Below, piece by piece: positions 34,941 through 53,114 of a DNA stretch of 64,000 nucleotides. The notes under the pieces were generated by a model, which saw nothing but the letters and a program-made list of their open reading frames with translations, was not told where the DNA came from and did not search any database. The translations under genes were made by a program, and so were the position numbers. This DNA is from Escherichia coli (lineage in GTDB: Bacteria > Pseudomonadota > Gammaproteobacteria > Enterobacterales > Enterobacteriaceae): the NCBI RefSeq assembly GCF_022846255.1, contig NZ_AP025682.1, one strand, 5' to 3'. Numbering within the stretch: the first letter of the stretch is position 1; each line of letters opens with the position of its first letter.

Positions 34941-34963
34941 TGGTGCGAAGGCCGGACTCGAAC
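34941..34963 (-). repeat. 23-bp direct repeat of the leuX 3-prime end (att site / island junction)
   Basis: tggtgcgaaggccggactcgaac matches the 3-prime end of the tRNA at 53030-53054 except for one deleted base. Confidence 0.8.
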
Positions 34964-35685
34964 ATATTAATTATCCCGTTGTATTTAAGGCTATTTTATC
35001 AAAATCATTATTGAAGTACCATCATTAATACCATCATAGGTATTGTTCTCCTTTGGCAACAGTTCTTTGATATCGAAATACTTTAACGAACTTTTTATGA
35101 CATCATACTTTGAAGAAAAAATCACATACTGATTTTCATCCAGTACATCTTGCAAGACAAGGTATAAAACAGGGACTACGATTAAAAATAGCAAAGTCAT
35201 TCACTAAATGAATTCAAAATCAGTGATGTTCTTATCTGCAAGAATATAATATATTTAAAAGATTATAAGCAATATATAAATAATAATATAGCTTTAAAAA
35301 AACACACATGAATTAGAAGTTAAATACATTAATTAAAGAAACAAATAAGTAAGAATTTTGTTTTTAAATAACTCATGCAAACGCATCGTTTATTTATATT
35401 AAAGGAAAATGATGAAATCCAATCTAAATTTAAATAGCTACATTACAAACGAATAGAAAAAGAAGCATTTTCCATGTTAAACTACTATCTTGGTGAAGAC
35501 AGGGGGTATAGCCTTCTGCGGTAGCCTACGCTCTTCGAATGCAAAGCAAGAAAATAACCTTTATAATCAAATTGTTATGCAATGCGCTTGTAGAGCAAAG
35601 GTATCTTAAACGAATAGGTTTAACAGTTAAAGCCTCTTTACATAGGCTGAACAAGGGCAGTACTTGAAAATGATAAAATTGGGGT

Positions 35686-37371
35686 ATGTTTAAAATTATG
35701 AATGCCCATAGTTTAGAGATGAGAAAAGAGTTAGGAGCATATTATACTCCAAGTGCTCTTAGTCAAGTGATGTCAGATTGGGCAATTAGAAGACCAACTG
35801 ATAAAATACTTGAGCCAAGTTTTGGAGGCTGTGGCTTTTTAGAAAGCTGTGAAAAGAGCCTCATGGAGATAGGCTGCATAAACCCAATGGAAAATTTATT
35901 TGGGGTTGATGTAGACCAAAAAGCCTTTGATACTCTCAAAAAAAAATATGGGCATTTATTAATAAAAAAACATTTCATTTTAAGTGATTTCATTAACGTA
36001 TTTCCAAAAGATTTTGGCATTGAAGATTTTGAGGTTATCATTGGGAACCCTCCTTATATCTCTATGCATAATATGAGTTATGAACAAAGGAAGTCCTGTG
36101 AAAAAGTTTTTGCTGACTCACCTTTTAAAACAAAAACATTAGGACGCAATGCAAGTCTTTGGGGGTTTTTCTTACTCCATGCATTAAGCTTCATTCGAGA
36201 AAATGGACGAATAGCGTGGGTATTACCGAGTAGTTTTTTAAATGCCTATTATGCGAAAGAGCTTATAAGAATTTACAAAAATCATTTTAACCATCTAAAA
36301 ATAATAAAGATAAATGAAAGACTTTTCAAAAATGAAGGTGCCGATGAAATGTCAGTACTTTTTTTATGCGATGAGTTTCACAGGACACCTATCAATAATG
36401 GATACGTTTCAATTGGATTTGCTGACACATTAAATGAACTAACCAGCATAATGACTGGAACTAAAGAAAACAAATTAAATAGCTCTGAAAATTACAAATA
36501 TAATATATTAGATATTGACACATTAAATGTGATATCGTCTATAACAGAACATAAGTACAGTTTAAAAATACAGGATATTGCTGATATAAAGATTGGGATG
36601 GTAACCGGCATGAACAACTTCTTTATATTGGATCAAAATCAAATTTTAAAACATAATTTAGACAATAAACATTTTAGACCAGTTATTTCACGATTTTCAC
36701 ATTTGAAGGGAATTCACCACACATTAAAAAGACATACGAAGTTAATTGCAGACAATAAAAAAGGATTGCTATTACACGTCAGTCCAGATGATTTATATGA
36801 AAAACATAGTCCGTTGAGAAAATATTTATCACAAGTTGATAGAAAAGAACGAGTCAAAAACCGCACATTCAAAAAACGAAAAAAGTGGTTTCAACCAGAT
36901 GATGGTATTTACCCAGACGCATTTTTTTCATATATGGTTCATGAGTTTCCCAGAATGATATTAAATAAAGGGAAAGTTAACTGCACTAACTCAATACATC
37001 GTATCTTTTTCAAAGATATAGCATCTAATAAATTAAAAAAAGCATGTTGCATATCTCTTTTATCAACATTTTCACAACTTTCTGCCGAACTTGAAGGTCG
37101 GTCATATGGCTCAGGTGTGCTAAAAATAGAGCCTACCGCAGGAAAGAACATATCATTCTTAATTAAAGATGATTTAATACACGAGTTAAGCAACTTAAGT
37201 AAAGAAATAGATCAATTGCTTTTAAATAATGAAACAAGCAATGCCACTGCTTTAGTTGATAAGTTTTTTGTTGATAAGGGACTAATTAGCTTAGATGAAT
37301 TGAAAAGTCTTAAAAAAGGGTTATTCAGATTAAGAAAAGATCGATATAAAGGGGTCAAAAATTATGAGTGA
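35686..37371 (+). CDS. N6-adenine DNA methyltransferase (Eco57I-like gamma-class) with C-terminal extension
   Basis: Motifs GAYYTP, ILEPSFGGCGFL (motif I-like) and IIGNPPYIS (motif IV, approx 36044-36060); 561 aa; first gene of a tightly overlapping four-gene operon. Confidence 0.8.
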   Translation: MFKIMNAHSLEMRKELGAYYTPSALSQVMSDWAIRRPTDKILEPSFGGCGFLESCEKSLMEIGCINPMENLFGVDVDQKAFDTLKKKYGHLLIKKHFILSDFINVFPKDFGIEDFEVIIGNPPYISMHNMSYEQRKSCEKVFADSPFKTKTLGRNASLWGFFLLHALSFIRENGRIAWVLPSSFLNAYYAKELIRIYKNHFNHLKIIKINERLFKNEGADEMSVLFLCDEFHRTPINNGYVSIGFADTLNELTSIMTGTKENKLNSSENYKYNILDIDTLNVISSITEHKYSLKIQDIADIKIGMVTGMNNFFILDQNQILKHNLDNKHFRPVISRFSHLKGIHHTLKRHTKLIADNKKGLLLHVSPDDLYEKHSPLRKYLSQVDRKERVKNRTFKKRKKWFQPDDGIYPDAFFSYMVHEFPRMILNKGKVNCTNSIHRIFFKDIASNKLKKACCISLLSTFSQLSAELEGRSYGSGVLKIEPTAGKNISFLIKDDLIHELSNLSKEIDQLLLNNETSNATALVDKFFVDKGLISLDELKSLKKGLFRLRKDRYKGVKNYE

Positions 37372-39673
37372 AGATATTCTTTTTTTGAAGGATAAGATGA
37401 AAGCCCTCCTGGATAATGAGGCTCTCGATTATGATAAAGTATTAGAAACAGCAGTAAAAATCACCGAAAAAGACAACAACAATATTAGATTTTCTGTAGA
37501 TGCGAATTTAGTTAGAAGATTAGGTGAGCAGTTAGTCGCTAAAAAAACTACTGCTGTCAGTGAATTGGTGAAAAATGCTTATGACGCAGATTCGACATTA
37601 GTAAATGTATATTTCGAATTGAACGAAGCAAATCCTCGAATAGTCATATTCGATGACGGCACAGGTATGTCAAAGGAAGATATTATCAATGGATTCATGC
37701 GAATAAGCACAAGTGAAAAAGAAGATAACTCTGTTTCAGAACGATATCAGAGACTAAGAGCAGGTAGAAAAGGTATTGGGCGTTTTTCTACACAGCGATT
37801 AGGAAATTATTTAAAAATAATTACCAAGCAAGAAAATGAAGAGTTAGGATATTTAATAGAAATTAACTGGCAGCAGTTTTCAAAAAAGAAAAATATATCC
37901 TTCATTGCTAACACTATCTCAAAAATCGATGTGGATTTCATTCATGGAACAAAAATAATAATAGAAGATCTGAATGATAAAGATTGGTCTGATGGGAACA
38001 TAAAAACGGCTTATAAATATATTAAGAGCATTATAAATATTGCCCCAAGCGAGACAGATCCAGGTTTCCAAGTAAAGTTCTATTATAAAAATGCCAATGG
38101 CTATGAATTAGTTGCAGATGAGAAAACTGAAATTTTTTCTGATAGTGATGCTCATATTACAGCAACACTTGAAAATGGAAATGCTGTAGTGAGAGTTAGC
38201 AGTGAAACCCTTGGCATAAAAAATGAAAGCATAGATGTATGGTATGATGAAAAAAATAACATACGAAAATTCTCACATATAAACTCTCCAGTAAAGCTTG
38301 ATGCATACTATTTCTCATTAGCAACAGTTAACTCCAGAAAACAAGCGGCATATTTACGTGAAAATGGCGGAATAAAAATCTATCGAAATGGATTCAAGGT
38401 TTCTCCTTATGGAGAGCAGTATGATGACTGGACGGCTCTTGATGACTCGGTTCGAAGGAGAAAGATATTACCCCCTCATGGTAATCAAAACTTCTTTGGA
38501 CACGTCAAAGTTGAAGACCTAAATGGAATAGACTTTGAAGAAACGTCCTCAAGGGAAGGTCTGATTCATACCGATGCCTTTCAAGAACTTCGCCTCTTTG
38601 TATATAAAGCACTGACGGCTGCGGTAATAAGAATTAGTGAAGCCAGAAATATAAAAATAAATCCAAATGACCGTAGCTATGTTAAAGAAACTAAACCAAC
38701 AATATCAGTCAAAGATAAATTAAATATTGTATCTGAAACGATAAGCTCGGTTAGTAAATTGGTAGATGCAGCAACATCTGTTGATGACGTTTCAAGTGAT
38801 GGTGTCATTAATAACATTGAAGATAAAAGTATAAGAAACAAAATTATTGAAGATCTCCATGAAGCCGCAGATGAGCTAAAACAAGCGAGTGTGATATCTC
38901 AATCTTTAATCGATGAAATTGAGCTTCTTAGAGTGCTTGGCGCTATGGGCCTTGCTATTGGTGAGTTTACACACGAAATAAATTTATCAATAACAAGTTT
39001 GAGTATTAACGTTCAAAACCTTAAACAGTCTAAATTATTAGAGGAAGATAGAGACTCTGCTCTAAATAGCCTTGAAAATAATATTGCAACATTAAAATCA
39101 TTTACTAAATTTTTTGACAGTACTATACGTGAGAATGTAAACAGAAATAAGAAAGTTATTGAGATAAGAGACTCTATTGAGCCATTTTATGAATCGATGA
39201 AACCAATAATAGAACGCAAAGGAATTCAGTTTGCAATACATTATGAAGGTTATGAACTTTTTACGAAGCCGATTCATGTTTCAGAGCTATATTCTGTATT
39301 TATAAATCTCTTTACGAATGCATATAAAGCAATACTTCGTTCTGGAACAAATCCACGAAAAATGTCTTTAACTGCGAAAAAAGATAGTGAAGATATAATT
39401 ATCCGATTCGAAGATAGCGGTGATGGAATTGAACCTGCAAATAGAGAAAGAGTTTTTGAGCCTTTCTATACAACAAGTACACCATCAGGACCTTTTGAAA
39501 GTGATGATTTATCATTAAAAGGAATGGGATTGGGGTTATCAATCGTACGTGATCTCGTTGAATCCATGTCTGCAGAAATATCTATAGTTGATGCATCCGA
39601 TGGTTTTACAACGTGCTTTGAGTTGAGAATTCCAAAAGCTGATGATAAGGAAATACCAGATGACATCTATTAA
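37364..39673 (+). CDS. Dual Bergerat-fold ATPase: N-terminal MutL/HSP90/MORC-like GHKL module plus C-terminal histidine-kinase core (HisKA-like H-box + HATPase_c)
   Basis: N-terminal motifs ELVKNAYDAD (approx 37562-37591), DDGTGMS, GRKGIGRF; C-terminal H-box GEFTHEINLSITSL (approx 38961-39000), N-box LFTNAYKAIL, G1 EDSGDGIE, F-box FEPFYTT, G2 GMGLGLSIV; no obvious TM segment; start overlaps MTase stop by 8 nt. Confidence 0.7.
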   Translation: MSEDILFLKDKMKALLDNEALDYDKVLETAVKITEKDNNNIRFSVDANLVRRLGEQLVAKKTTAVSELVKNAYDADSTLVNVYFELNEANPRIVIFDDGTGMSKEDIINGFMRISTSEKEDNSVSERYQRLRAGRKGIGRFSTQRLGNYLKIITKQENEELGYLIEINWQQFSKKKNISFIANTISKIDVDFIHGTKIIIEDLNDKDWSDGNIKTAYKYIKSIINIAPSETDPGFQVKFYYKNANGYELVADEKTEIFSDSDAHITATLENGNAVVRVSSETLGIKNESIDVWYDEKNNIRKFSHINSPVKLDAYYFSLATVNSRKQAAYLRENGGIKIYRNGFKVSPYGEQYDDWTALDDSVRRRKILPPHGNQNFFGHVKVEDLNGIDFEETSSREGLIHTDAFQELRLFVYKALTAAVIRISEARNIKINPNDRSYVKETKPTISVKDKLNIVSETISSVSKLVDAATSVDDVSSDGVINNIEDKSIRNKIIEDLHEAADELKQASVISQSLIDEIELLRVLGAMGLAIGEFTHEINLSITSLSINVQNLKQSKLLEEDRDSALNSLENNIATLKSFTKFFDSTIRENVNRNKKVIEIRDSIEPFYESMKPIIERKGIQFAIHYEGYELFTKPIHVSELYSVFINLFTNAYKAILRSGTNPRKMSLTAKKDSEDIIIRFEDSGDGIEPANRERVFEPFYTTSTPSGPFESDDLSLKGMGLGLSIVRDLVESMSAEISIVDASDGFTTCFELRIPKADDKEIPDDIY

Positions 39674-40763
39674 CCTACTTTATATCGATGATGATCAGCC
39701 TCAGCAAGTAAAGGGTTTAATTGAAGCAATAATCAGTAAAGCGAGTTTTGATTTAAATATAACTCATAAACCGCCGACGAAAATGAGTGAAATAGCCATA
39801 GAGTTGAGACAAGGTTATGATGGTATCATCATAGATCAAAAACTTGACAGCTTTGTTGAGGGAGTAGAACCAGTTGATTACTTTGGTGCCGCGTTAGCAC
39901 AAAATTTGCGAACACTCATGGCGGGTAAGTCAGATAATATATCTTATAAGCCAATAATTTTACTCTCTCTCGAAAGCTTATTAATTGAATATTATAATCC
40001 CGATTCAAGCTCGCATGATCTATTTGATTTAGTTTTGAGTAAAAGCATATTAGAACAACCAGAATTGTTAGAAAAAAAAGTTCACTTAATAAAATCTATT
40101 GTGAATGCTTACAAACGTGCACATTCGGAAGACTCGTTATATCAATTGCTTTCTCTGAGCAGTAATTATTCATTGCTTGATAAAAGATTTGAAATATATA
40201 TTTCTCAGTATGATAAAGATATACATAAGCTCGTCACATCCATACACTCCACACTTCTGAGAAGTAGTGGCATGTTAGTTTCTGAGATAACTTTGGCAAC
40301 CAGACTGGGTATTAATATTGAAGAATCGCCAGACTGGCACCAAGTAATTGGGCACCTTGAGGAATATAAATACAATGGCATATTCTCTGATTATTATAAA
40401 AGATGGTGGTGGGCAGATGTAGAGTTGTGGATAAATAAAAAGCTTAACTGCCCAATAATTAAAGGATTAACCTCAGAAAAAAGAGTGGAGATCATCAAAG
40501 AAAAACTTGGCTTAGAACGATTGATGCCAATTCATAGCGTACATCCAGGCCAAAGCACCAAGTTTTGGGTTAATTGTATCATCAGTAAAGAACCTCTTGA
40601 TACAATAGATGCTCTTCGTGCATCATCTATGGAATTAAAACCTTGGGAAGATGATAAATACCTTTCAATTAAAACAGTGTTAGAGAGACGGGCCGAAAAA
40701 TATAAAGTACATCCAGAAGATAGAACAAAATTGGATCGAATTCGGGCGAGGTTTAAATTATAA
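39642..40763 (+). CDS. Receiver (REC)-like domain protein with unassigned ~250-aa C-terminal domain
   Basis: CheY-like pattern: LLYIDDD (beta1, acidic pocket), GIIIDQKL (candidate phospho-acceptor Asp), KPIILLSLES (beta4 Ser); divergent REC, so call is tentative; overlaps kinase gene stop. Confidence 0.5.
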   Translation: MIRKYQMTSINLLYIDDDQPQQVKGLIEAIISKASFDLNITHKPPTKMSEIAIELRQGYDGIIIDQKLDSFVEGVEPVDYFGAALAQNLRTLMAGKSDNISYKPIILLSLESLLIEYYNPDSSSHDLFDLVLSKSILEQPELLEKKVHLIKSIVNAYKRAHSEDSLYQLLSLSSNYSLLDKRFEIYISQYDKDIHKLVTSIHSTLLRSSGMLVSEITLATRLGINIEESPDWHQVIGHLEEYKYNGIFSDYYKRWWWADVELWINKKLNCPIIKGLTSEKRVEIIKEKLGLERLMPIHSVHPGQSTKFWVNCIISKEPLDTIDALRASSMELKPWEDDKYLSIKTVLERRAEKYKVHPEDRTKLDRIRARFKL

Positions 40764-41506
40764 TGAACAATAATACAACTTTGTTAGACGATATGTGTAG
40801 GCTCAGGGACTTTTTATATGATAGCCGCATATGCCCAGATATTAATCCTCTCAACCGTTTAATCAGTAAACTTAATGCAAATCTCCACTCCGAAACAGGG
40901 GAGGACTTTGAATACTCTTTAGACGATTTAGTATTTTATCTTAGCGAAAAATCTGGAACAATTTGTCCGACCCAAATTACACCCAAAGAAAACCCTATTG
41001 AAATACATTTGGAACTTATATTAAAAAGTGAAGGCCCTTATGAATTTTCGAAGATTAAAGAACTTTCAGGGCAATTACGACTTAAAGCTGAGTGGATCAA
41101 TGACACAACAGAAAAAATTGAGATAAAAACATCACATAGTGCTTGGCATTTTGATTATCATGTTCCTCAAATGGGGGATGGCGTAAATTCATTTACTCAT
41201 CCTCAATTCCATTTACAAAATGGAGGAAACAGGCTGACTGATAATTTAAATGACTATGGAGAGTTAATGATTCTTGATGCTCCAAGACTACCTTTACCTC
41301 CTATGGATGTGATATTAGCCATTGACTTTATTATTTCAAATTTCTTTGGTTCTATTTGGCAACAAGCATTATGTGATTCAGAATACATTGATGTAGTTAA
41401 AAGAGCACAAAAAGCATGGTGGAAACCTTATTATGAAGGTATAAGTCAACACTGGTCTGGCAATGGCTCAGGAATATCCAATATCCTAATTCCAAACCTT
41501 CTGTAG
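40763..41506 (+). CDS. Hypothetical protein (247 aa), fourth gene of the operon; possible effector
   Basis: ATG overlaps preceding stop (ATAATG); His-rich segment HFDYHVPQMGDGVNSFTHPQFH; no confident motif. Confidence 0.6.
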   Translation: MNNNTTLLDDMCRLRDFLYDSRICPDINPLNRLISKLNANLHSETGEDFEYSLDDLVFYLSEKSGTICPTQITPKENPIEIHLELILKSEGPYEFSKIKELSGQLRLKAEWINDTTEKIEIKTSHSAWHFDYHVPQMGDGVNSFTHPQFHLQNGGNRLTDNLNDYGELMILDAPRLPLPPMDVILAIDFIISNFFGSIWQQALCDSEYIDVVKRAQKAWWKPYYEGISQHWSGNGSGISNILIPNLL

Positions 41507-41771
41507 TGTATCAAAATCTGTTAACCATCTCCAATTACGAATAGCAATATTTATATAAAACTAATTTTTTATTTTAAACAACTTCAGCAAGGGCTAACTC
41601 TCAGCATCTCCTTCGGTGATACTTTGAGTTGCTCCTTGTTTTTTCGCCCTTTGGTTGAAAAAATTAAAAGCAAAACCAACCCTATACATTGACTTTTTCA
41701 GCATCTATCATATAAATAAAATAAGCATAATGGACATGCTTATTTTACTTTACTATATGAAAGGAGTTCAT

Positions 41772-42185
41772 ATGAATGATAGGAATCATACTTTTAATAA
41801 GTTCGAGCCATTCAGAAGTTGTAGCTATGAAAATTTTACTTCTGCTAAAACACTCTCCCAGCAGACACGTTCTCATTGTATTAGTATCAGATTAAATGAT
41901 GCCGAGTTATCTTACGTTGATGGCTTACGAGAAGATCTCAACCGTGCTGTTTGGATACGTATGTCAGCATTGAATCGTCTCCCTTCCAAAATTCCTGAAA
42001 TAAATCTAATTGTCTGGAAAGACCTTGCCAAAGCATCTCAGAATCTGAATAACCTCGTTCAGCATCTCAACACTAAATCACACGATAGTCCTTTTACTAT
42101 CACCGAAATTTATACGGTACAAAAAAGAATAAAAGCACTAAGAGATGCCCTTCTGTCAGCAAATCGATCTGTCAGTGATAAATAA
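41772..42185 (+). CDS. MobC-like mobilization accessory protein
   Basis: Strong RBS aaggag 5 nt upstream of ATG 41772; small basic protein with ribbon-helix-helix-like segment (CISIRLNDAELSYVDGLRED); stop overlaps relaxase start (TAATG). Confidence 0.55.
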   Translation: MNDRNHTFNKFEPFRSCSYENFTSAKTLSQQTRSHCISIRLNDAELSYVDGLREDLNRAVWIRMSALNRLPSKIPEINLIVWKDLAKASQNLNNLVQHLNTKSHDSPFTITEIYTVQKRIKALRDALLSANRSVSDK

Positions 42186-43372
42186 TGAAAGGGATGCAAA
42201 AAATCCGCAGAGGAAAGAGTTTTGCTGGTGTCGTCCTCTATGCGTTAAAGCCCGGTTCTCATCATAAAAAAGACCCTATCGTGATCGGTGGAAATATAAC
42301 GATAGTTGGCAATGCCGCTAAAGATCTGATCGCTGAATTTGATAGCACCAAACAGCTTCGCCCTGACGTGCAAAAGGCTGTTTGGCACAACTCGCTTCGC
42401 TTACCTAAAGGTGAATCACTAACGGCTAAACAGTGGTCTGAAATAGCAGATGATTACATGTCCCGCATGGGCTTCTCTGAAACGCATCTCAGATGCTACG
42501 TCCTACATGACGACGAAGATGGCCAGCACATCCATATCATCGCCAGCAGAGTGTCTCTTGATGCCGGAAAGCTCTACCTCGGCAGGAATGAGAACCTGGC
42601 AAGCACGAGAATAATTCAGCAACTTGAAAGAAATTACAATCTGACAAGAACCAAAGGGCCAGGAGCTAAAGCATCTACATCTTCTCTTTCCTCTAAACCG
42701 AAACATAAAAAATCACGTAATGAGGCTATGTTAGAGGAGAGAACTGGTGAACCATGCCCTAAATCCATCATCCAAAGGGCTATAGATTCGATAACATTAA
42801 ATCCTATAGCAATTGATGACTTCGTTGAAAAGCTGAATAGCATAGGGATTACGGCGAAAAGCAATATTTCTTCAACTGGCAAGATGAATGGATTTTCCTT
42901 TGAATGCAAAGGTGTTGTGTTCAAAGCTTCCCAGCTTGGCAAGAAGTATAGTTGGAAGAACCTGGAATCAATGATTTCAATGAATTACAACTCACACATT
43001 GGTGATGAAAAACCTGTCATCCCTGAACCTGCTGCCCATCGCAGCAACGAAGCTGTCATACCTATAGTGGAAGACTATTCTGATGAAAAGATTTACCCTG
43101 AGATAAGGGTACCCTTACCAAGACCTGACACAGCGCCCACAAAACCTACAAGCATGACAATGCGTTGGATCGCAACCATACCTTATCTTGTGAGTGTTAT
43201 TAGCGCACTTAAAACGATGCGTATCCCCTTTCTAAAGGCGTTCAATGGCCCAAGGAAGTTCTTTTCCGTGTCCATGATTCACCTGTCCTCTGTAAGCCTG
43301 AAACAGACCAAAACGAATAATTTCAAACCAAAAAGTTCCCACCAAAAGGCCCACAAGCCCCTTCTCCCCTGA
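42185..43372 (+). CDS. Mobilization relaxase (MobA/VirD2-like)
   Basis: Relaxase histidine triad region HDDEDGQHIHIIASRV (HxH motif), N-terminal nickase-like domain; coupled to the MobC-like gene. Confidence 0.65.
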   Translation: MKGMQKIRRGKSFAGVVLYALKPGSHHKKDPIVIGGNITIVGNAAKDLIAEFDSTKQLRPDVQKAVWHNSLRLPKGESLTAKQWSEIADDYMSRMGFSETHLRCYVLHDDEDGQHIHIIASRVSLDAGKLYLGRNENLASTRIIQQLERNYNLTRTKGPGAKASTSSLSSKPKHKKSRNEAMLEERTGEPCPKSIIQRAIDSITLNPIAIDDFVEKLNSIGITAKSNISSTGKMNGFSFECKGVVFKASQLGKKYSWKNLESMISMNYNSHIGDEKPVIPEPAAHRSNEAVIPIVEDYSDEKIYPEIRVPLPRPDTAPTKPTSMTMRWIATIPYLVSVISALKTMRIPFLKAFNGPRKFFSVSMIHLSSVSLKQTKTNNFKPKSSHQKAHKPLLP

Positions 43373-44171: not shown

Positions 44172-44182
44172 GGAAAACAAGA

Positions 44183-44756: not shown

Positions 44757-44850
44757 CGCCTTGAAAATATTAGCAAGATAATAATCCATAAAGGATAATA
44801 TAAAAACCAAAATAATATGCTACGGTAGTTGTTATAAAAATCACATAAAA

Positions 44851-45273: not shown

Positions 45274-45357
45274 CCTTGCAATTTATTTTGCCATCCTGAC
45301 AATTAAATAAATACCATAATTATTAATCACGTCAATAGTTAAAACCTATCTATTTTA

Positions 45358-45756: not shown

Positions 45757-47388
45757 TTATTCTCCTTTTTTTATTCTCTTATGGAATTCATACCATCTAT
45801 CAGCATTTATGTTCCCATCATTTTTATCATACAGTGTTCTTTTTGAAATTTTATCGTGAATTTTTGAAATCGTTTCGTTATCTAAACCAGAATTCTCAAT
45901 CGGATAATGTTCACACGGCTTAAACGCATATGAGTGCTTGCAGTAGCCATGTTTTGATACCAGTACTGCACCACTACTAAGTGAATCAAACTCATTAAGA
46001 ACCACCACTGGAATATCCTTTATTCTGTGCTCATTAACACACACTGATAACTTTTGTTCTCTTATTGCTTTAGACATTTGAAGATGCGATCTGTGGTCAT
46101 AAGAAAAATTTTGAGAAATAAGCTTACGTCCAGACCAGCGAGCAATACTAAACTCATCCATACCATTTATTTGAGCAAAAGTGTTGAGAAGATGCCTCAG
46201 TTGATGTGTTCTTAGCAAATATGGGCTACCATCATCATTTATATAACCATGTCTTTTAAATACATTTAAATATCCTTTTATATAATCAGAATCAACGATA
46301 TCAGTTTTAAAAAAATTCGTTGTAGGTCTGAATAACTTATCTAACATTTCCTTTTTATTTTGATTTAACTGTCCTTCAGTTAACAAGCAAAGCGCATTAG
46401 AATATTTGATTTTCTTCTCTCTATCATACCAAAAGAGATCTGGAGGTATATTTTCTTTAAGGGTTCCCATCGTTGAATTAGAGTAATTCTTTTGAATTTC
46501 AGCAGCCAATAATCTCGCTTGACTTGATAATTCTTTTAATCTGCTAATAGCCTTTTTTGCTACAGGTATCATTAAAGTTGGAATCCATTTTATATTGCCT
46601 TCATACCCTTTTGCTGAAAAAAATCTTAAACCGTATCTTTGAATGCCCTTTCCATCACATTCTGTAATTTCACAATCCACTGGCAAAGCTAAAATTTCCG
46701 ATATCCTACTCGGTGCACACATAAGTAAAGCAAGCACAGATGTAGTAAATATATCTCTTGACGATAATTGTTCATCCCGCTTTGAAAAAATCTCAGCAAT
46801 CGCAATAACTGATTTGATATCAGGCAATCTAGAATGGCCTTCCAGTGAAGAATCATAACCAGTCCAAGACTGAGTAATCCTATACCTAATTGGACTTATC
46901 CAAAATAAATAAGATGAGTTAGTCATCCTATTATCATTTAAAAATGAACTCAATTTCTCAAGTTCTTTCCCAATAGCAAATGCATGTGCTTTAGAATACT
47001 TTTCAGAGGCTATCCTTATGCATTCATCAAAGATTGAATTGTTGCAATAGTTTACATTAGCTTCCATATTGATTTTAAGTAAAACGAATTCGACAATCTT
47101 CAACATTGATAATGTTGAGTGTTTCGTCTTAGATTTATTGAATGAATGCACATGCAACATATATGCTTTAGCAAAATTAATAAAGCTATCATCTAAGCAT
47201 TCTTTGCTGTTTAGGTTGTTTTTTGAGTTAAACTTAGTAAACCTATATAAACCTTTCCATTTATTGCTTTCCCAAGAAGTTGTTAAATTATTATTAGAAA
47301 TAGTACTCTTACAAAACTCGATGAACTTAATAACATTATCGTGAGGGTTGTTTTTATTGCTTGGTTCAAAAATAAATATATTGTTCAT
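45757..47388 (-). CDS. Tyrosine recombinase (543 aa), third of three tandem recombinases
   Basis: Catalytic-region motifs PSRISEIL (box I Arg), HQLRHLLNT (HxxR), downstream Tyr region; 4-nt overlap with the upstream recombinase gene. Confidence 0.65.
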   Translation of the reverse strand: MNNIFIFEPSNKNNPHDNVIKFIEFCKSTISNNNLTTSWESNKWKGLYRFTKFNSKNNLNSKECLDDSFINFAKAYMLHVHSFNKSKTKHSTLSMLKIVEFVLLKINMEANVNYCNNSIFDECIRIASEKYSKAHAFAIGKELEKLSSFLNDNRMTNSSYLFWISPIRYRITQSWTGYDSSLEGHSRLPDIKSVIAIAEIFSKRDEQLSSRDIFTTSVLALLMCAPSRISEILALPVDCEITECDGKGIQRYGLRFFSAKGYEGNIKWIPTLMIPVAKKAISRLKELSSQARLLAAEIQKNYSNSTMGTLKENIPPDLFWYDREKKIKYSNALCLLTEGQLNQNKKEMLDKLFRPTTNFFKTDIVDSDYIKGYLNVFKRHGYINDDGSPYLLRTHQLRHLLNTFAQINGMDEFSIARWSGRKLISQNFSYDHRSHLQMSKAIREQKLSVCVNEHRIKDIPVVVLNEFDSLSSGAVLVSKHGYCKHSYAFKPCEHYPIENSGLDNETISKIHDKISKRTLYDKNDGNINADRWYEFHKRIKKGE

Positions 47389-48710
47389 AATGCTCTCCAG
47401 GGATTGAATTTTTTACACGTTAAGCATTTCAAATCCTCTTTCGTATCTTCTAATAAGAAAAATGCATCTGAAACATACTTGATAAAAAAGTTCTTGTTTT
47501 CTTCAATCTCTATGCCCATAAGTATATTAGATAAGGGGTTAAAAAACGCACTTAGTCTCTTATCGATGTCATAAACGTTGTCAGGATTGTTTTTTATATA
47601 TATCATAGAAGAGTTTACTGATTTATGATCTAAGGCTTTAGCAATCACCTCAATTGAGGCTCCTTCGTTAGCCAGTCGACTTCCTAACGTATATCTGAAT
47701 CTTCTAGCATTAAGTTCTATATAGCTGTTAGTCCTTTCTGACCTAACATCGAATTTTGACGGAAAGTGTTTTAATAGTTTTGACATAACTGAATTTTTCA
47801 TATGGAAAAAATCTGTTGTTAAATCAGATAAAAAATCCTCAATCCTTTTTGTTTCCGTAATCTTATCTAAATTCATGAAGATTGGTAATTCGCCTCTATA
47901 GTTATTAATCCCAACACTGAATTTATCTTCAACAAACGCCTGATTTTGATTAATTAGCATTGATAAACTGTCATATAAGAACGGTTCTATCATTACCATA
48001 TTAAATTCTTTTCTGAAACATTTTCTTTGTTTTACTTTTGGTACATTCAAAAAGCACCCTCTCTCATTTTTAATGAGATCTTTAGCTTTTAGAGATATCA
48101 ATTGTAATGGCCTTCTTCCTGTTATTGCCAGCAAAAGGATATAACAATACAAAAAGCATTGAATTTTCTTCTCATGATAAAATTTTCCAACGGCGTTAAT
48201 AATGTTATTGAATTCCGTTTCAGTTAAAGGTCCTTTATTTGGATCTCGTCTTTTAACTGCATCTCCTGTTTGGTTTGGAATGATTTTTATTTTCTCCAGC
48301 ATTCTAATGGCAGTCGCATCTACCCCAGGGTAATTGAGATTTTTCCATTTAGTGATGAAAGCCTTAATTGAGTTTAGTTTGTAGTTTCTTTCTGAACCTA
48401 AATAAACATTCAATTGATATATTGCTTTGTCATCAATAGTATCGATGGTCATTGCACCAAACCACTTATAAAATAGATTGTTAATATTTTGTATATAAAA
48501 AGAACTATATTCAGACGCATAGTAAGCTAATGTTTTTAAGTAGCTAAGTTTCATTTTTGTAGGCATTCTATCTACAACTTTATGAGGGTATACGCAGTTT
48601 TCTTTATCAAGTTGCCATTTCTTATCTGACAGTTTGAAACTATATCTATTCATCTTAGCAAAAAAAATTTGCTCACTTTCAATACATTTTATTTCCACAT
48701 TAAACCCCAC
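47385..48710 (-). CDS. Tyrosine recombinase (441 aa), second of three
   Basis: Motifs ITGRRPLQLISLK (box I Arg), RFRYTLGSRL and LDHKSVNSSMIY (box II); overlaps neighbours at both ends. Confidence 0.65.
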   Translation of the reverse strand: MGFNVEIKCIESEQIFFAKMNRYSFKLSDKKWQLDKENCVYPHKVVDRMPTKMKLSYLKTLAYYASEYSSFYIQNINNLFYKWFGAMTIDTIDDKAIYQLNVYLGSERNYKLNSIKAFITKWKNLNYPGVDATAIRMLEKIKIIPNQTGDAVKRRDPNKGPLTETEFNNIINAVGKFYHEKKIQCFLYCYILLLAITGRRPLQLISLKAKDLIKNERGCFLNVPKVKQRKCFRKEFNMVMIEPFLYDSLSMLINQNQAFVEDKFSVGINNYRGELPIFMNLDKITETKRIEDFLSDLTTDFFHMKNSVMSKLLKHFPSKFDVRSERTNSYIELNARRFRYTLGSRLANEGASIEVIAKALDHKSVNSSMIYIKNNPDNVYDIDKRLSAFFNPLSNILMGIEIEENKNFFIKYVSDAFFLLEDTKEDLKCLTCKKFNPWRAL

Positions 48711-49905
48711 TAATTATTTTACTTACTGATTTATAGACCTTTAGGACGACATCCTTCTCTTGTTGGGATATATATTTAAAATTGTATCTATTACACATGA
48801 TTGACTCCTTTGACCAACCCATTAGATAATTCCTTAAATCTTTCCTTCTACTATATTCTAATTCAGCGCCTTCAATTCCTTTAGAATACATATAATTCCA
48901 AGAGTGCCTTAACCTATGACCTGAAAGATTATATAGCTTTGGACTTGCTCGTTTCAGTGTTGATATCACCTTCTCATAAGCTGAAATGCTTAAGGGTTCT
49001 CCTGCGTTTTTTCCGGTGCAATGAGCCACGAATAAGAAATTATGTTTTTTCCTTTTTGTCATTTTTTCCCTGCTATTGCTTATGTAATCAAAAATTTCAC
49101 TGGCTAACTCATCAGATAACGGAATAACCCTTTCTCCAGTCTTTACTAATGGCTGATAAGCTCTTCCATCTTCTTTTGAATCATGTCTTCTGACTACACT
49201 TAAAGTGTTGTCTCTGAGATCAAAATCATCTATTTTAAGATTGAGCAACTCTCCAGCCCTTAAACCTAAATTTAAGAGCAAGGTAAATATTAGTCTGTTC
49301 CTGACCTGTACTTCCTTATGAAAAGGGTTTTCAATCCCACCAATTTCCAATAGACGGAAAAGCACATTGATCTCTTCTTCATTTAACGATTTTTCAGATA
49401 TTTCATTCATATTCAATGAACTGTTTCTTGGAATATGTGCTCTGATACTTTCAATAAATACTTCTACTTCATACTTTGCATGAATCCCCTTTGACGAATG
49501 AACTAATCCACATAACCACTTAAGGTAGCGTGAAAAAACGTGTACTCTATAACTAAAGGTTCTCTTTGCAATAAACCTATTACTTGCTGATTTTATATTT
49601 ATAATTTTTTGTCTATCGAATCTTTGTTTCGCATATCTTACCAGATCATCTATTTCTGCAACGCTGAGATACTTTTTAAGCTCAATTCTCTCAACTATAT
49701 TAATTTTCCTACTATCTAAGAAATTACTAAAAATTAGTAAGTTAGTTGCAACTATTTCCATAGTTGAGGCGGTTGCGCCTCTATTTCTTATGTCTGTAGT
49801 AAGAAATAGATTTTGATAGTAAGCTGGTAGATTACTATTTTTATCAAGGATCAGGCATCCTCGCTCCCCATTACTCATGATGAATTTCTTTACTTTATAT
49901 CCCAT
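48700..49905 (-). CDS. Tyrosine recombinase (401 aa), first of three
   Basis: Motifs LGLRAGELLNLKIDD (box I Arg), GHRLRHSW (HxxR), LMGWSKESIMCNRY (box II Tyr). Confidence 0.65.
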   Translation of the reverse strand: MGYKVKKFIMSNGERGCLILDKNSNLPAYYQNLFLTTDIRNRGATASTMEIVATNLLIFSNFLDSRKINIVERIELKKYLSVAEIDDLVRYAKQRFDRQKIINIKSASNRFIAKRTFSYRVHVFSRYLKWLCGLVHSSKGIHAKYEVEVFIESIRAHIPRNSSLNMNEISEKSLNEEEINVLFRLLEIGGIENPFHKEVQVRNRLIFTLLLNLGLRAGELLNLKIDDFDLRDNTLSVVRRHDSKEDGRAYQPLVKTGERVIPLSDELASEIFDYISNSREKMTKRKKHNFLFVAHCTGKNAGEPLSISAYEKVISTLKRASPKLYNLSGHRLRHSWNYMYSKGIEGAELEYSRRKDLRNYLMGWSKESIMCNRYNFKYISQQEKDVVLKVYKSVSKIISGV

Positions 49906-50029
49906 TTTGACCTCATTCTTTACAAATTAATATCACTCTCACTTATTAAATATATTCCAATTCAAAATAATTCAAATTTTTTACAATGGCTTTAGTTTAT
50001 TTGGTATATATATTAATGGCTTGAAAAAA

Positions 50030-50049
50030 TTTATTTGACGTCAAATAAA
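50030..50049. repeat. 20-bp perfect palindrome upstream of the recombinase trio
   Basis: tttatttgacgtcaaataaa centred on GACGTC, ~125 bp upstream of the first recombinase start codon. Confidence 0.5.
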
Positions 50050-50287
50050 CAGGTACGGCTAGTATTGAGTATCCATACCCGATATTAAGAAAACCATCTT
50101 CAACCCTTATAGCAAAAGCTCTGCTAGAAAAAAGGTAAAGAATTACGTCAAATATACTTATTTTTCAGATACAAACTTTACAAAGCCTCTTTTTTTTCAA
50201 AGCCACTAAGTAAACTCAAAAGATCTCTAAATTCCTTTTTCTTAATACATTATCAAAAGTTAAAAAATCCATGAAGCAGCATTCCTG

Positions 50288-50491
50288 TTAAGCGACATGC
50301 TTTCTTGAATTTTCGATAATTAATTGAATCCATTCATCGATTTCGCTTTCTACAAAAGCGGTAGCACGAATACCGATCTTTACTGGCTGTGGGAACCGAT
50401 TTTGGCTGATAAGACGATAGATCCACGCTTTACCAAATCCAGTTTTCTTCATGACTTCTGGTAAACGGATGAGACGAGCTTGATTTTCCAT
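50288..50491 (-). CDS. alpA: AlpA-family phage/island transcriptional regulator (excisionase-like HTH)
   Basis: MENQARLIRLPEVMKKTGFGKAWIYRLISQNRFPQPVKIG... typical AlpA HTH; RBS agga 7 nt upstream of ATG 50491 (the ORF-track start at 50575 is probably too long); adjacent to the integrase module. Confidence 0.75.
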   Translation of the reverse strand: MENQARLIRLPEVMKKTGFGKAWIYRLISQNRFPQPVKIGIRATAFVESEIDEWIQLIIENSRKHVA

Positions 50492-50611
50492 ATGTATGTC
50501 CTCTGTTGTGTCTACAGGGCTACAGTACAAATGAATTTCGAATGGATGAAGCGAGATTACGAACATCAGAGCCATCCCTGGCTCGAAACTATGAGTCTCT
50601 GGAGATTCATA

Positions 50612-51523
50612 TCACTCAGAGTCTGAGAGTTTCATAACATCCGAAACCCTCATTTCTTTAACATGCTGATTTTTATTGATAAAAAAGTTAAATTGCCTTA
50701 AAAAATCAATTTCTACAGTTTTCATTGCGAAAGGCCGATCAGCATCTCTTATATGATATCCTTGGCGAATCGCCTTATCATCATCTTCATCCGTGTATAG
50801 CAATCGAGATAATCTGTCGTCTGACAGAAGTAATTTTTTTCTTTCTGACCATGCGAGCAAATCAAGCATAGGGATAATTCGATAGCTAATTAATTTTTTT
50901 ATTGCCCCATAACCAAATCTGACTGCATCAAGTGGTGCAGGTTTAACGCCTTTTACTTTTCGCCATTGTGGTAATGATACTCGCAGGGCCTCAGCTATCT
51001 CATCATCGCTTCCACCCGCAAGATCGATTTCTAACATAATCGTAGTAGGAAACTGTTCAGGAATTTTTTCGGAAATATATTCATTTTCAATAGTGGAATC
51101 AATTTTATATTGTTCTGTATTTGCTCTAATGAATAAAGCCTTTCTCATACAATCAAAACTGATATTTGCTATTCGATCAACAGTAGTAATAAAAAAGTAT
51201 GGGGGTTGATATAATTTATTTTCGGCATCCATATAATTTAAGTGCTTCTCTTTGATAAGAAAAGGATCACCATCCAATATCTGCATATAATTTTTCAATA
51301 CTGTTTTCTGCATTCCTTCTTCTATTACTGGTTTGAAAAAATAGGTTCTCGCCCATATTTCATGGTAAAGCATATTAATAGAAATGTTTTCAAACCCTCG
51401 ATATTTGTCCAAATCAAACCACGTTTTCACTGCTTTGGTGTCTTCTGATGTCCAACTATTCATTTTTACCCAAGATTTCATTAATGCCACTCCGTTGTAA
51501 AAAGTTTTACTTCGTAATAGCAC
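50612..51523 (-). CDS. Hypothetical protein (303 aa) of the integrase-alpA module
   Basis: ORF between integrase and alpA on the same strand; no motif recognised. Confidence 0.55.
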   Translation of the reverse strand: MLLRSKTFYNGVALMKSWVKMNSWTSEDTKAVKTWFDLDKYRGFENISINMLYHEIWARTYFFKPVIEEGMQKTVLKNYMQILDGDPFLIKEKHLNYMDAENKLYQPPYFFITTVDRIANISFDCMRKALFIRANTEQYKIDSTIENEYISEKIPEQFPTTIMLEIDLAGGSDDEIAEALRVSLPQWRKVKGVKPAPLDAVRFGYGAIKKLISYRIIPMLDLLAWSERKKLLLSDDRLSRLLYTDEDDDKAIRQGYHIRDADRPFAMKTVEIDFLRQFNFFINKNQHVKEMRVSDVMKLSDSE

Positions 51524-51592
51524 ATAAATCGCAAATAAAAAAATGGCGTCTCAATTGGTTATTGAATACGCCATTTTACTCATAAAAATCAG

Positions 51593-52840
51593 TTAGTTAT
51601 TAAAATCAAAAGGTGCAATTCTTCTCTTAGTTGTTTCATCAAGATAATCAGCCCACCACTGCAACATCAACCTACGCTCATCCAAATGCTCAGCTTTATG
51701 AATGTATGCGGCACGAACGGAGTTCCGCTCCTGATGGCTCATCTGCCTCTCAACAGCATCTCTCGACCACTTTCCTGACTCGATCAAAGCACTACAAGCC
51801 ATCGCTCTAAAACCATGCCCACATACCTCAACGGTTGTGTCATAACCCATCGCCCTGAGCGCCTTGTTCACTGTGTTTTCGCTCATAGGTTTTCTGAAAT
51901 CATGATCGCCAATGAATACCAGGTCGCATTCGCCGCTGATTTCTCTGATGGCTTTTAGAAGTTCTAAAGCCTGACGACTTAACGGCACGAGGTGTGGGGT
52001 CTTCATTTTTGAACCTCGATGGGAATGTTTGACTCCTGGCAATAGCTCGCGTTCTCCAGGGATAGTCCACATCGCATTTTCAAAGTCGATCTCCGACCAT
52101 CTTGCGAATCGGAGTTCAATGGAACGGATAAAAATGAGCAATGTCAGCTTCACAGCTAATTTAGTAAGTTTCCTACCTTTAAAGCTTTCAATGCGCTCTA
52201 AAAGCTCTGAGAACCTATCAAATGGTAAGGCTGGTCTGTGGGTTCGTTTCGCAACTGTAATTGCCCCAGACATATCTTGTGCTGGATTGTAGTCAATTAA
52301 GCCATTCTGGACGGCATATCGCATTACTGCCGTAGTCCTTTGCTGTAGTCGGGAAGCAACTTCCAGTCGTCCAGAAGCTTCAACGGCCTTGATAGGGGCG
52401 ATAAGATCTCTGGTATTAAGCTCGGATATTTTTCTTTTACCAATAGCAGTAAAGAGACCATCCTCCATGCTTTTTAGAACTCTTTCGCTGTGAGAATCTG
52501 ACCATTTCCTTTTACAGGCAGTATGCCAGTCCCTTGCAACAGCTTCGAATGTCAGGGCTTCGCTTTGCTCAATCTTATCTGCTTTTTTCTTTTCAGAAGG
52601 ATCGATACCATCAGATACCAACTTTTTGGCTTCATCTCGCTTCCTGCGGGCTTCACCAAGAGAGACCATTGGATAAACACCCAATGCTAAAACTTTCTGT
52701 TTGCCCCCGAAACGGTATTGGAGTCGCCAGTACTTTGAACCATTGGGGTTGATCAGCAGGTGCATACCCTGCCCATCTGTGAGTTTGAAAGGTTTATCGG
52801 AGGGCTTTGTTGTTCGAACTTTGATATCAGTGAGTGCCAT
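51593..52840 (-). CDS. P4-type tyrosine integrase (intact)
   Basis: 415 aa; N-terminal GSKYWRLQYRFGGKQ and C-terminal catalytic region (HGFRAMACSAL, conserved Tyr region AAYIHKAE); starts 190 bp from the tRNA 3-prime end. Confidence 0.85.
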   Translation of the reverse strand: MALTDIKVRTTKPSDKPFKLTDGQGMHLLINPNGSKYWRLQYRFGGKQKVLALGVYPMVSLGEARRKRDEAKKLVSDGIDPSEKKKADKIEQSEALTFEAVARDWHTACKRKWSDSHSERVLKSMEDGLFTAIGKRKISELNTRDLIAPIKAVEASGRLEVASRLQQRTTAVMRYAVQNGLIDYNPAQDMSGAITVAKRTHRPALPFDRFSELLERIESFKGRKLTKLAVKLTLLIFIRSIELRFARWSEIDFENAMWTIPGERELLPGVKHSHRGSKMKTPHLVPLSRQALELLKAIREISGECDLVFIGDHDFRKPMSENTVNKALRAMGYDTTVEVCGHGFRAMACSALIESGKWSRDAVERQMSHQERNSVRAAYIHKAEHLDERRLMLQWWADYLDETTKRRIAPFDFNN

Positions 52841-53029
52841 CAGTTGATACCTCCATTGTTGGTACCAAAATCAATCGAACCGAGAATACCATCAGTTATA
52901 CCATCATCGGTTGGTATATGTTCAAGGAATTGAGTAGACGTGAACAGACTAAGCCAAGTCAGAAACTCGCTTAACTTACTGTTTTTTTGGACTAAAGTAG
53001 ACGTTAGTAGACTTGAAAAAAGCTTTGTA

Positions 53030-53114
53030 TGGTGCCGAAGGCCGGACTCGAACCGGCACGTATTTCTACGGTTGATTTTGAATCAACTGCGTCTACCGAT
53101 TTCGCCACTTCGGC
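53030..53114 (-). tRNA. leuX: tRNA-Leu (leuX-like, 85 nt with long variable arm)
   Basis: Acceptor stem GCCGAAG/CUUCGGC, T-arm GGTTCGAGTCC and 3-prime CCA read on the minus strand; sits between ahr and a P4-type integrase as at the K-12 leuX locus. Confidence 0.9.

Follow-up and report, generated by a model that had tools for sequence, protein, structure and literature searches.

A mobilizable-type genomic island at leuX of Escherichia coli combines a GInt-type recombinase operon with candidate defence cargo

We analysed a 64,000-nucleotide stretch of Escherichia coli DNA (contig NZ_AP025682.1 of RefSeq assembly GCF_022846255.1), called the window here and numbered from its first letter. The window contains an 18-kb island, at 34941–53053, next to the tRNA-Leu(CAA) gene leuX. 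We are fairly confident that the best explanation for this island is an integrative mobilizable element (IME) from a modular Enterobacterales family, with a gin module that would shuffle parts between islands and a cargo of putative defence genes. An earlier sequence-only reading of the same DNA had noted genes for integrase, AlpA, MobC and relaxase but none for a type IV secretion system (T4SS) or a type IV coupling protein (T4CP), and had proposed from this that the island could excise and then be mobilized in trans. All our sequence-level tests are in favour of this central proposal, and the assignment as an IME is well supported in silico. An IME at leuX is ordinary in itself. What is new here is the hybrid architecture of an IME and a GInt (a genomic island with three integrases; Bardaji et al. 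2017, PMC5385486), together with a recombination site that has a hypervariable spacer, a slot that holds either gin or replicase genes, and a rare cargo operon.

The limits of the island were established by comparison with an empty-site strain, E. coli CFSAN061771, which matches window positions 12000–34940 at 99.4% identity and then runs directly into leuX. The three junction sequences align base for base, with CFSAN061771 homology stopping at 34940, and show that exactly 18,089 bp have been inserted at the 3' terminus of leuX. The sequence that ends the tRNA gene, TGGTGC(C)GAAGGCCGGACTCGAAC, recurs at the far boundary with one C fewer, giving a direct repeat of 23/24 nt, and this distal-end repeat is also present in four related leuX islands. 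The sequence-only reading had placed the island at 34941–53114; these coordinates proved exact, the right one taking in the host tRNA gene. All 16 open reading frames (ORFs) of the island are intact (Table 1).

The integration module next to the tRNA gene looks functional, as judged from its genes and sites. The P4-like integrase is full length, and its R, HxxR and Y motifs were found by eye. Each arm of the island carries a pair of TACCATCA motifs, in the same orientation and with the same spacing. This motif matches the window 12 times (1.9 expected), and related arm motifs occur in the distal arms of the leuX islands L002, L015 and L023. Such a paired layout is as expected for arm-type integrase sites in attP. 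The AlpA-family regulator is a candidate excision activator or directionality factor. Both the integrase and AlpA had been named in the sequence-only reading, and their profile matches bear this out. Site-specific integration and bounding att repeats, as expected of an IME, are thus represented by the integrase, the direct repeat, the empty site and the arm motifs.

The mobilization module also has the appearance of a functional one. Besides its Pfam match, the MOBP-like HUH relaxase matches the NCBIfam TraI/MobA(P) family (1e-19). It aligns end to end with five full-length homologues from other islands, conserved C-terminal block included, and is shorter than these in a variable linker alone. 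The N-terminal tyrosine (Y19) and the histidine motif HDDEDGQHIH are kept. The relaxase named earlier is therefore present and full length, being colinear with its homologues, and not truncated. By tblastn, its relatives lie on 239 plasmids, most of them small, of which 128 are typed as mobilizable and 23 as conjugative. The mobC stop codon overlaps the relaxase start. MobC had no match in Pfam, NCBIfam or PDB sequences, but comparison of its family with the annotated MobC of pWES-1, a mobilizable plasmid typed MOBP, gave an hhalign probability of 98.9% (E 3.6e-17), so that the earlier naming of MobC holds though a Pfam match is lacking.

Upstream of mobC, the homology shared by islands whose cargo is unrelated has a sharp edge at GCAAGGGCTAAC (41587), the first base of a nested hairpin. 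The conserved block that starts there comprises the hairpin, TTTTTTCGCCCTTTGG, a promoter, a 15-nt inverted repeat and the mobC ribosome-binding site. Compensatory changes are seen in all three stems of the hairpin across 18 loci, and we regard the conserved hairpin as a candidate oriT. The 15-nt inverted repeat looks like an operator. As the sequence-only reading had stated, genes for T4SS or coupling proteins are missing: no island ORF matches such families in NCBIfam or Pfam. The island thus has a relaxase with its motifs, a MobC homologue and a conserved hairpin of its own, and has no complete mating-pair formation system or coupling protein, which is the combination that characterizes an IME.

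The recombinase trio that the sequence-only reading had counted as cargo turned out to be part of the backbone. It belongs to a GInt-type ginABCD operon of four overlapping genes, which lies within conserved backbone in 17/17 Enterobacterales and 28/28 metagenome relatives examined, all with the same gin lineage. Distant Pseudomonas-type homologues have just the four gin genes in common with it. GinC gave no Pfam match and nothing significant among PDB sequences. GinD is identical to WP_001052044.1, a ginD in the PSI-BLAST survey of Idola et al. 2023 (PMC10214605, Additional file 10), which also lists O157 Sakai ECs_3509/3510 and the IAI1 leuX copy. The gin module is present in 385 of 5,426 complete E. 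coli genomes (7.1%), in agreement with the survey's ginC–ginD frequency of 7.5% for Escherichia. One of the trio might conceivably be a tyrosine-recombinase-like relaxase of the MOB_M type, an idea that comes from bioRxiv 10.64898/2026.01.13.699239; this is unlikely, as an HUH relaxase is already present and the GInt genes are required for recombination. As a side observation, a GinB that matches the E. coli protein at 98.6% identity is encoded on a 1760-bp contig (L021) whose metagenome-assembled genome (MAG) bears the label uncultured Streptococcus sp.; this contig is most likely mis-binned enterobacterial DNA.

The gin operon exchanges between islands as one cassette. In L015 the integrase, DUF6387 protein and AlpA are 96–100% identical to those of the window and the Gin proteins 54–70%, while L003 has the opposite pattern, with Int at 39%, DUF6387 at 51%, AlpA at 90% and the Gin proteins at 97–99%. 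At the DNA level, identity breaks at ~50050–50100 and at the ginD stop (45340–45358). A sibling leuX island in E. coli JNEC-KY179 (L023; NZ_AP045176.1, 7865–10000) has a Replicase gene and an 84-aa ORF in place of the gin cassette and otherwise the same backbone. The Replicase is of plasmid type (PF03090, with a marginal PriCT_1 match), and this Rep-type variant was found in 4/5,426 genomes. The 'relaxase' of JNEC-KY179 is a MobC::relaxase C-terminal fusion without the nuclease domain.

The upper breakpoint coincides with a core-type recombination site between AlpA and ginA. Alignment of this intergenic region revealed the block ATCGGGTATGGATAC-NNNNN-ACTAGCCGTACCTG (in gin direction, window 50083–50050), in which the arms are imperfect inverted repeats and the spacer lies ~160 nt upstream of the ginA start. 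The arms are invariant. The 5-nt spacer occurs in 14 variants among 15 loci, and in 31 among 43 when metagenome loci are included. In A42 and MSI001, whose AlpA and ginA beside the site are 97–100% identical to those of the window, the spacer differs at 3/5 and 5/5 positions, against 0/95 and 1/95 in the flanks, which are under selection and so give no neutral yardstick for spacer variation. The mosaic island L015 has 1/44 differences on the AlpA side and 9/51 on the gin side, and L003 shows the opposite. Reassortment of the int/DUF6387/AlpA block against the gin block thus occurs exactly at this site, and this result is robust. Adjoining the site is a perfect 20-nt palindrome, TTTATTTGACGTCAAATAAA. 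In a second gin lineage it reads TTTCTTTCACGTGAAAGAAA and is still perfect, both halves having changed together, which suggests a lineage-specific binding site for a dimer. There is one copy of the site per island, and an intact site was found in 360/363 E. coli genomes, once in each and always in the chromosome.

The backbone of the family, int / DUF6387 / AlpA / ginABCD / p140 / relaxase–MobC / variable cargo, was compared across Klebsiella, Enterobacter, Pantoea, Pectobacterium, Citrobacter, Kosakonia and 28 metagenome loci. The order DUF6387, AlpA, gin operon, p140, variable slot, relaxase, MobC, variable cargo is constant. Many genomes share the right-hand 12 kb of the island and differ in the left-hand genes, which in relatives include restriction-modification genes, ABC-three-component systems with TIR or SIR2, and others. 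The same backbone is found with other integrases at thrW, at proL and in the ssrA–ypjA region. The proL version carries its integrase at the other extremity, and DUF6387 adjoins a partial copy of tRNA-Pro. In another version an island begins with an integrase and has the backbone at its other end, next to ypjA; we take this ypjA-adjacent locus to be the ssrA locus of the K-12 map. On circularization, the int–attP unit of any of these islands would in every case have DUF6387 on one side and the cargo on the other, in either orientation. A Pantoea island encodes an integrase 96% identical and Gin proteins 89–98% identical to those described here, which indicates recent exchange between genera. 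Most of the relatives inspected, with O157 as an exception, also carry the relaxase, MobC and the candidate oriT. Decayed relatives occur as well, with relaxases disrupted by insertion sequences in MSI001, the fusion described above in JNEC-KY179 and a truncated version in O157.

Variable slots number at least four in this family. In IAI1, the interval between int and DUF6387 holds a DNA cytosine methyltransferase gene and a hypothetical gene (L008, 4715–6866), and ZH177 has sce7725/sce7726-family genes between DUF6387 and AlpA (L005, 15065–17379).

These data suggest the following mechanism. Int, aided or switched on by AlpA, would recombine the two repeats and release the island as a circle. 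MobC and the relaxase would nick the candidate oriT, and a co-resident conjugative plasmid or integrative and conjugative element (ICE) would provide the coupling protein and the T4SS. In the recipient, Int would re-integrate the circle at leuX. The Gin proteins would catalyse site-specific recombination at 50050–50083, most likely between copies on different elements, and would thereby shuffle integration modules against the remainder of the island.

Several observations weigh against this explanation, or against parts of it. The predicted attP junction had no match in metagenome contigs; since excised forms are rare, this result is uninformative. Compared with the tRNA copy, the distal repeat is one C short. 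The hairpin of the candidate oriT ends in a T-run, and could be a terminator of the cargo operon instead of, or in addition to, an oriT. No helper element is visible in the window. The whole island is rare, being present in one other strain (TUM11353, 99.4% identity) among 5,426 complete E. coli genomes. With respect to the gin module, the spacer is constant throughout the O157:H7 clone and so does not mutate rapidly. Split (integrated) gin half-sites were not found in any of 363 E. coli genomes. With respect to defence, the response regulator and the His-rich protein of the cargo operon are unmatched in PADLOC, and the kinase has three matches there, none of them convincing.

The first alternative, which we regard as unlikely, is that the island is a GInt, nested or circularly permuted, and so has two alternative integration systems. 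In the nested form, a ginABCD unit with p140, the mob genes and the cargo would have been inserted by Gin into a minimal leuX island consisting of int, DUF6387 and AlpA. In the permuted form, 50050–50083 would be the attI junction of a GInt circle that entered the chromosome through Int and attP. The site does lie upstream of ginA, where GInts have attL. Its inverted arms and short variable spacer resemble the circle junctions of the elements known as SEs (PMC10214605) and the GInt att sites, which have a 6-nt overlap that recombination alters. Two independent mosaics break at the spacer, the second breakpoint falls at the ginD stop, where GInt cargo starts, and the single site per element is what an unsplit attI would give. 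Against this, among 15 loci, no attR-like partner or 10–17-nt imperfect repeat stands at a consistent position. Searches of these loci for a second half-site (≤3–4 mismatches) and for 12-mers containing each locus's own spacer (≤2 mismatches) gave chance-level matches with no consistent position or arm similarity; the short, AT-rich 3' ends of GInts are poorly conserved, and these searches might miss a degenerate attR copy.

Nor does the far end of the island look like a GInt terminus. The search for a conserved element end near the distal repeat gave only Int arm motifs: beyond ~45 nt these are all that distal ends share, and they are also present in the gin-less Rep-type island. This gin-less sibling moreover retains p140 and a mob module, albeit a degraded one. 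Split half-sites are absent from the 363 E. coli genomes, and every copy of the site has an Int-type tRNA or tmRNA context. Two candidate partner sites were rejected. A TCAAT match near the distal end is part of the Int arm-type repeat, and L001 has the same distal sequence with a different spacer. At the ginD/p140 junction, where a second variable-spacer site was considered, the interval is a conserved promoter plus palindrome.

Our preferred reading, an IME in which Gin acts on a single site, takes the Gin proteins to recombine sites on different elements. Such recombination would explain the reassortment seen at the site. The likeness of the site to GInt biology, with 6-nt staggered cuts, overlap variants after recombination and possibly replicative excision, is no more than suggestive. 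It is possible, and we propose it tentatively while thinking the odds to be against it, that the gin operon and its single site are an active GInt-type system that has been domesticated within a mobilizable island and recombines between elements or at secondary targets. If so, whole mob-plus-defence segments would be swapped onto integration modules for other tRNA genes, the 5-nt overlap being rewritten at each recombination. GInts would then have a route of horizontal transfer, so far undemonstrated for them, and the island would represent a new class, a dual-recombinase IME, with ginABCD where a sibling island has a replicase of plasmid type.

A second alternative, quite improbable in our judgement, is a fixed, immobile defence island with relic mobility genes, which would have come to be in two strains through homologous recombination around leuX and not through transfer driven by the element. 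The rarity of the island, the 1-nt deletion in its distal repeat and the decayed relatives in MSI001, JNEC-KY179 and O157 would fit this, as would the older island with a dead integrase that is already present at leuX (see below). It does not sit well with the intact ORFs, the full-length int, alpA, mobC and relaxase genes and the sites in both arms, with an insertion exact to the nucleotide, or with near-identical backbones in different genera, at the cognate tRNA of each integrase type. A phage satellite (P4-like, or a phage-inducible chromosomal island, PICI), spread by a helper phage and not by conjugation, is scarcely credible: an integrase with AlpA is a hallmark of Gram-negative PICIs, int and alpA adjoin the tRNA gene here and a sibling island has a Replicase/PriCT gene, but PHROGs gave no structural or packaging matches, no primase–replicase, capsid-redirection, terminase-small or cos/pac-associated genes were found in PHROGs, NCBIfam or Pfam, and the island has a complete MobC–relaxase module with plasmid relatives.

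Table 1. Positions and supporting evidence of the features of the leuX island (window coordinates).
Feature	Position	Strand	Details
Distal direct repeat, partial copy of tRNA-Leu 3' end; far boundary of island	34941-34963	none	TGGTGCGAAGGCCGGACTCGAAC; equals 53030-53053 minus one C
Candidate integrase arm-type sites, distal arm	35017-35036	+	two TACCATCA, 12 nt apart, at 35017 and 35029; just inside distal repeat
Cargo gene 1, N6-adenine type II-like DNA methyltransferase, 561 aa	35686-37371	+	PADLOC MTase_II PDLC03267, E 2.3e-89, full length
Cargo gene 2, GHKL ATPase/histidine-kinase fusion, 769 aa	37364-39673	+	Pfam, NCBIfam
Cargo gene 3, response regulator, 373 aa (367 aa from RefSeq start)	39642-40763	+	receiver domain plus uncharacterised C-terminal domain
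Cargo gene 4, His-rich protein, 247 aa	40763-41506	+	invariant His and Asp residues
Candidate oriT	41586-41665	+	nested hairpin, then TTTTTTCGCCCTTTGG; kept in 18 loci
Putative mob promoter and 15-nt inverted repeat	41689-41750	+	TTGACT-17 nt-TATCAT
MobC-family relaxosome accessory protein, 137 aa	41772-42185	+	hhalign against pWES-1 MobC
MOBP-like HUH relaxase, 395 aa	42185-43372	+	Pfam Relaxase PF03432, 1.6e-25, model positions 1-132/132
Variable slot, DUF4755 membrane protein	43581-44171	+	Pfam DUF4755, 6e-35
Variable slot, lipoprotein, 96 aa	44183-44473	+	signal peptide and Cys by eye
Backbone gene p140	44851-45273	-	own promoter and palindrome, 45288-45338
GInt-type ginABCD operon	45358-49905	-	four overlapping genes
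ginD, 132 aa	45358-45756	-	small; coiled-coil C-terminus read by eye
ginC, 543 aa	45757-47388	-	larger third protein
ginB, 441 aa	47385-48710	-	Pfam Phage_integrase
ginA, 401 aa	48700-49905	-	Pfam Phage_integrase
Core-type recombination site	50030-50083	-	arms 50069-50083 and 50050-50063; 5-nt spacer 50064-50068; palindrome 50030-50049
AlpA-family regulator	50288-50491	-	Pfam Phage_AlpA PF05930, E 2e-18
DUF6387 protein, backbone gene always paired with AlpA	50612-51523	-	Pfam DUF6387, 1e-76; synteny in all relatives
P4-like tyrosine integrase, leuX-specific, 415 aa	51593-52840	-	NF007246, 5e-72, residues 3-403, full length
Candidate integrase arm-type sites, proximal arm	52887-52906	+	two TACCATCA, 12 nt apart, at 52887 and 52899; upstream of int
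tRNA-Leu(CAA) gene leuX	53030-53114	-	3' 24 nt (53030-53053) form the proximal direct repeat

The sequence-only reading had described the cargo as AT-rich compared with flanking core genes, and had taken this to point to a low-GC donor. The first part stands as far as the contrast with the flanks is concerned. The GC content per 1-kb bin is 0.30–0.42 throughout 35001–52000 and 0.44–0.54 in 25001–35000 and 53001–64000, and the island as a whole is at 34.7%, against 50.3% on its right side and 49.5% in window positions 1–13000. The AT-richness is not specific to the cargo, and the left flank is not core genome. The cargo genes are at 31–35% GC, as are the gin genes, and DUF6387 is at 34%, with the relaxase at 44% and int at 45%. 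In relatives from Pantoea, Pectobacterium, Citrobacter and Kosakonia the gin operon has 32–36% GC. The low GC content is a trait of the element family, in hosts of 50–57% GC. As the gin backbone is as AT-rich as the cargo, and is so across genera, a recent low-GC donor is therefore not implied, and we found no support for one.

The cargo operon consists of four overlapping genes, the first of which is annotated in RefSeq as an N-6 DNA methylase. The second encodes a fusion of an N-terminal MORC/HgiDII-type GHKL ATPase with a C-terminal histidine-kinase core. In Pfam this protein matches HATPase_c_3 (residues 63–187, 6e-22), HATPase_c (641–759, 3e-17) and, marginally, HEF_HK (528–585, E 0.012). 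In NCBIfam it matches the N-terminus of BbrUII/HgiDII restriction enzymes (2e-27) and many histidine-kinase models, and the H, N, G1, F and G2 boxes can be read by eye. The match to BbrUII/HgiDII-type enzymes is confined to the N-terminal ATPase domain (residues 42–206), and the three partner proteins of the methyltransferase gave no recognisable nuclease domain. The 247-aa His-rich protein gave no family or fold match. Two of the cargo families are very rare, with 20 and 6 clusters among 5.8 billion proteins.

The trio of kinase, response regulator and His-rich protein is conserved in distant bacteria, and its neighbourhoods point towards defence. A P2-like prophage in a Serratia fonticola MAG (L028, 5000–10882) carries it, preceded by a methyltransferase gene, in the interval from gpA to the portal gene. 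We take this position to be a known defence hotspot, as Rousset and colleagues reportedly described in 2022. The trio is again accompanied by a methyltransferase in a MAG labelled Saccharimonadaceae, where the neighbourhood resembles a Bacteroidota-type conjugative element (DUF4133, DUF4134, TraG); this may be a binning artefact. It occurs without the methyltransferase in a JGI metagenome, in a defence-like neighbourhood. These further loci are L025 (4684–10728) and L026 (4758–8819). In other islands of the family, the cargo slot holds restriction-modification genes, ABC-three-component systems, and TIR and SIR2 genes. From these neighbourhoods, the operon is a candidate anti-phage system, linked to methylation and controlled by a phosphorelay.

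Between the distal repeat and the methyltransferase gene lie 720 bp (34964–35685) of very AT-rich, non-coding DNA with no Rfam match; across the island, the tRNA was the sole match to Rfam. A 69-aa ORF (34991–35200, minus strand) within this interval overlaps the arm-type motifs.

The slot between the relaxase gene and p140 (43581–44473), filled here by the DUF4755 membrane protein and lipoprotein genes, holds an unrelated gene of ~220 aa in other islands, and homologues of DUF4755 or of the lipoprotein in some relatives. The p140 gene gave no family match and is present in every relative whose locus extends that far, the Rep-type island included. The interval between ginD and p140 (45288–45338) is promoter-like, with a -35 of TTGACG/TTGACA and a -10 of TATGGT followed by a near-palindrome, TTGTCAGGATGGCAA, which reads TTGTCAGGATGACAA in relatives. 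Even next to gin operons that have diverged strongly, this interval is retained.

The left neighbour of the island, at window ~7400–34818, is an older leuX-linked defence island, as seen from the annotation of the identical CFSAN061771 region (coordinates approximate). It ends in a truncated P4-like integrase gene (33949–34818), and the newer island has been added in tandem between the tRNA and the older one. The older island encodes a large DEAH-box helicase, an STY4851/ECs_5259 family protein, type II Zorya (zorA2/zorB2/zorE) and a nanM fragment. It also encodes several nucleases (an HNH endonuclease, a phosphorothioate-dependent restriction enzyme and a PDDEXK nuclease) and a JetD-domain protein. 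Three ORFs, 25567–30003, 30006–30902 and 30905–32371, are annotated in RefSeq as a coiled-coil protein and two hypotheticals; we read these as the Wadjet partners JetC, JetB and JetA. The right part of the older island contains BrxR (32547–33440), a transposase fragment and the truncated integrase.

To the right of leuX are ahr and idn genes. In this window, as in A42, ahr is followed on its right by the idnK-idnD-idnO-idnT(-idnR) cluster (54333–58316). TUM11353, MSI001 and IAI1 lack the cluster between ahr and yjgR (compared: L001, 21427–24078). The idn cluster is a separate presence/absence polymorphism near leuX.

Here, and in ~7% of complete E. coli genomes, O157:H7 included, a GInt operon is built into an island that integrates at tRNA genes. 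With the relaxase, MobC and candidate oriT in most of the relatives inspected, these islands offer a concrete, testable transfer route for this operon. The site upstream of ginA provides a defined substrate for the study of three-recombinase systems. The family also carries anti-phage systems in modular form across Enterobacterales, and its rare four-gene methylase–phosphorelay operon is a candidate new defence system.

How does the island compare with known systems? A literature search found no paper that describes this backbone or links GInt genes with a relaxase. The cargo operon has two possible counterparts, which serve us as leads and not as tests. Detocs is said to be a two-component anti-phage system, from work by Rousset and colleagues in 2023, and GHKL (MORC/MutL-like) ATPases were reportedly linked to restriction-modification by Iyer and colleagues in 2008. 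Like Detocs, the cargo operon lies in a defence-island setting and pairs a histidine kinase with a receiver-domain protein whose output is not DNA binding. Like the GHKL restriction-modification systems, it has a HATPase_c_3-type GHKL ATPase gene adjoining a DNA methyltransferase gene. It differs from both in that the kinase has the GHKL domain in the same polypeptide, and in that the methyltransferase is usually, but not always, attached.

The integration end of the island also has precedents. The intA–alpA module of CP4-57 in E. coli K-12 combines a P4-like integrase, linked to a tRNA or tmRNA gene, with an AlpA-family regulator. The EARL/ROD21-like element ICEKp258.2 (PMC10763509) shares this combination and also has a DUF6387 gene beside AlpA at the island end. 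EARL islands differ in having a MOBQ relaxase, TraD, type IV pilus genes and a tRNA-Asn site, and in lacking a gin operon. PIMEs, a family of Pseudomonadota IMEs, are defined by int, alpA, a replicase, trbJ and trbL (bioRxiv 10.64898/2026.01.12.698999). The island described here has int and alpA but no replicase or trb genes (NCBIfam), which rules out membership of that group, and adds a MOBP-like MobC–relaxase pair, DUF6387 and ginABCD.

The gin operon resembles that of GInts, which were called the Tn6571 family by Hochhauser et al. 2023, a study in which GInts and IMEs appear as two distinct kinds of carrier for E. coli defence systems. Gene order and gene sizes agree, with two recombinases that match the Pfam integrase family, a larger third protein that does not, and a small coiled-coil protein. 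The four genes are co-oriented and overlap, variable DNA starts at the ginD stop, and an att-like site with a short, variable overlap lies upstream of ginA. In GInts as described by Bardaji et al. 2017 (PMC5385486), the operon forms the 5' extremity, directly against attL and host DNA, and an imperfectly repeated attR closes the element. Here, in contrast, AlpA, DUF6387, the P4-like integrase and the tRNA repeat lie beyond the site in 43/43 site-bearing loci, no 10–17-nt attL/attR pair was found, and the ends of the island are Int-type att sites. Since these two defining features, the operon at the extremity and the attL/attR pair, differ, we have therefore not filed the island as a GInt. A further difference is its conjugative mob module, of which the parts of the GInt paper covered here make no mention; that paper reports that GInts excise and integrate and that intercellular transfer could not be demonstrated. 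SEs are alike in having a multi-recombinase operon with a small accessory protein, and junctions that are imperfect inverted repeats around a spacer of ~6 bp without fixed sequence. Their order is intA-tfp-intB-srap and their sequences cluster apart from GInt genes, whereas the island has the GInt order.

The closest fit is with IMEs that have a tyrosine integrase, AlpA and a MOB module of their own, as reviewed by Guedon et al. 2017 (PMC5704250). Like these, the island is integrated next to a tRNA gene, carries int and alpA, has its own relaxase, accessory protein and oriT (here a candidate) without a mating pore, and includes a large variable region that holds defence systems, represented here by a candidate system.

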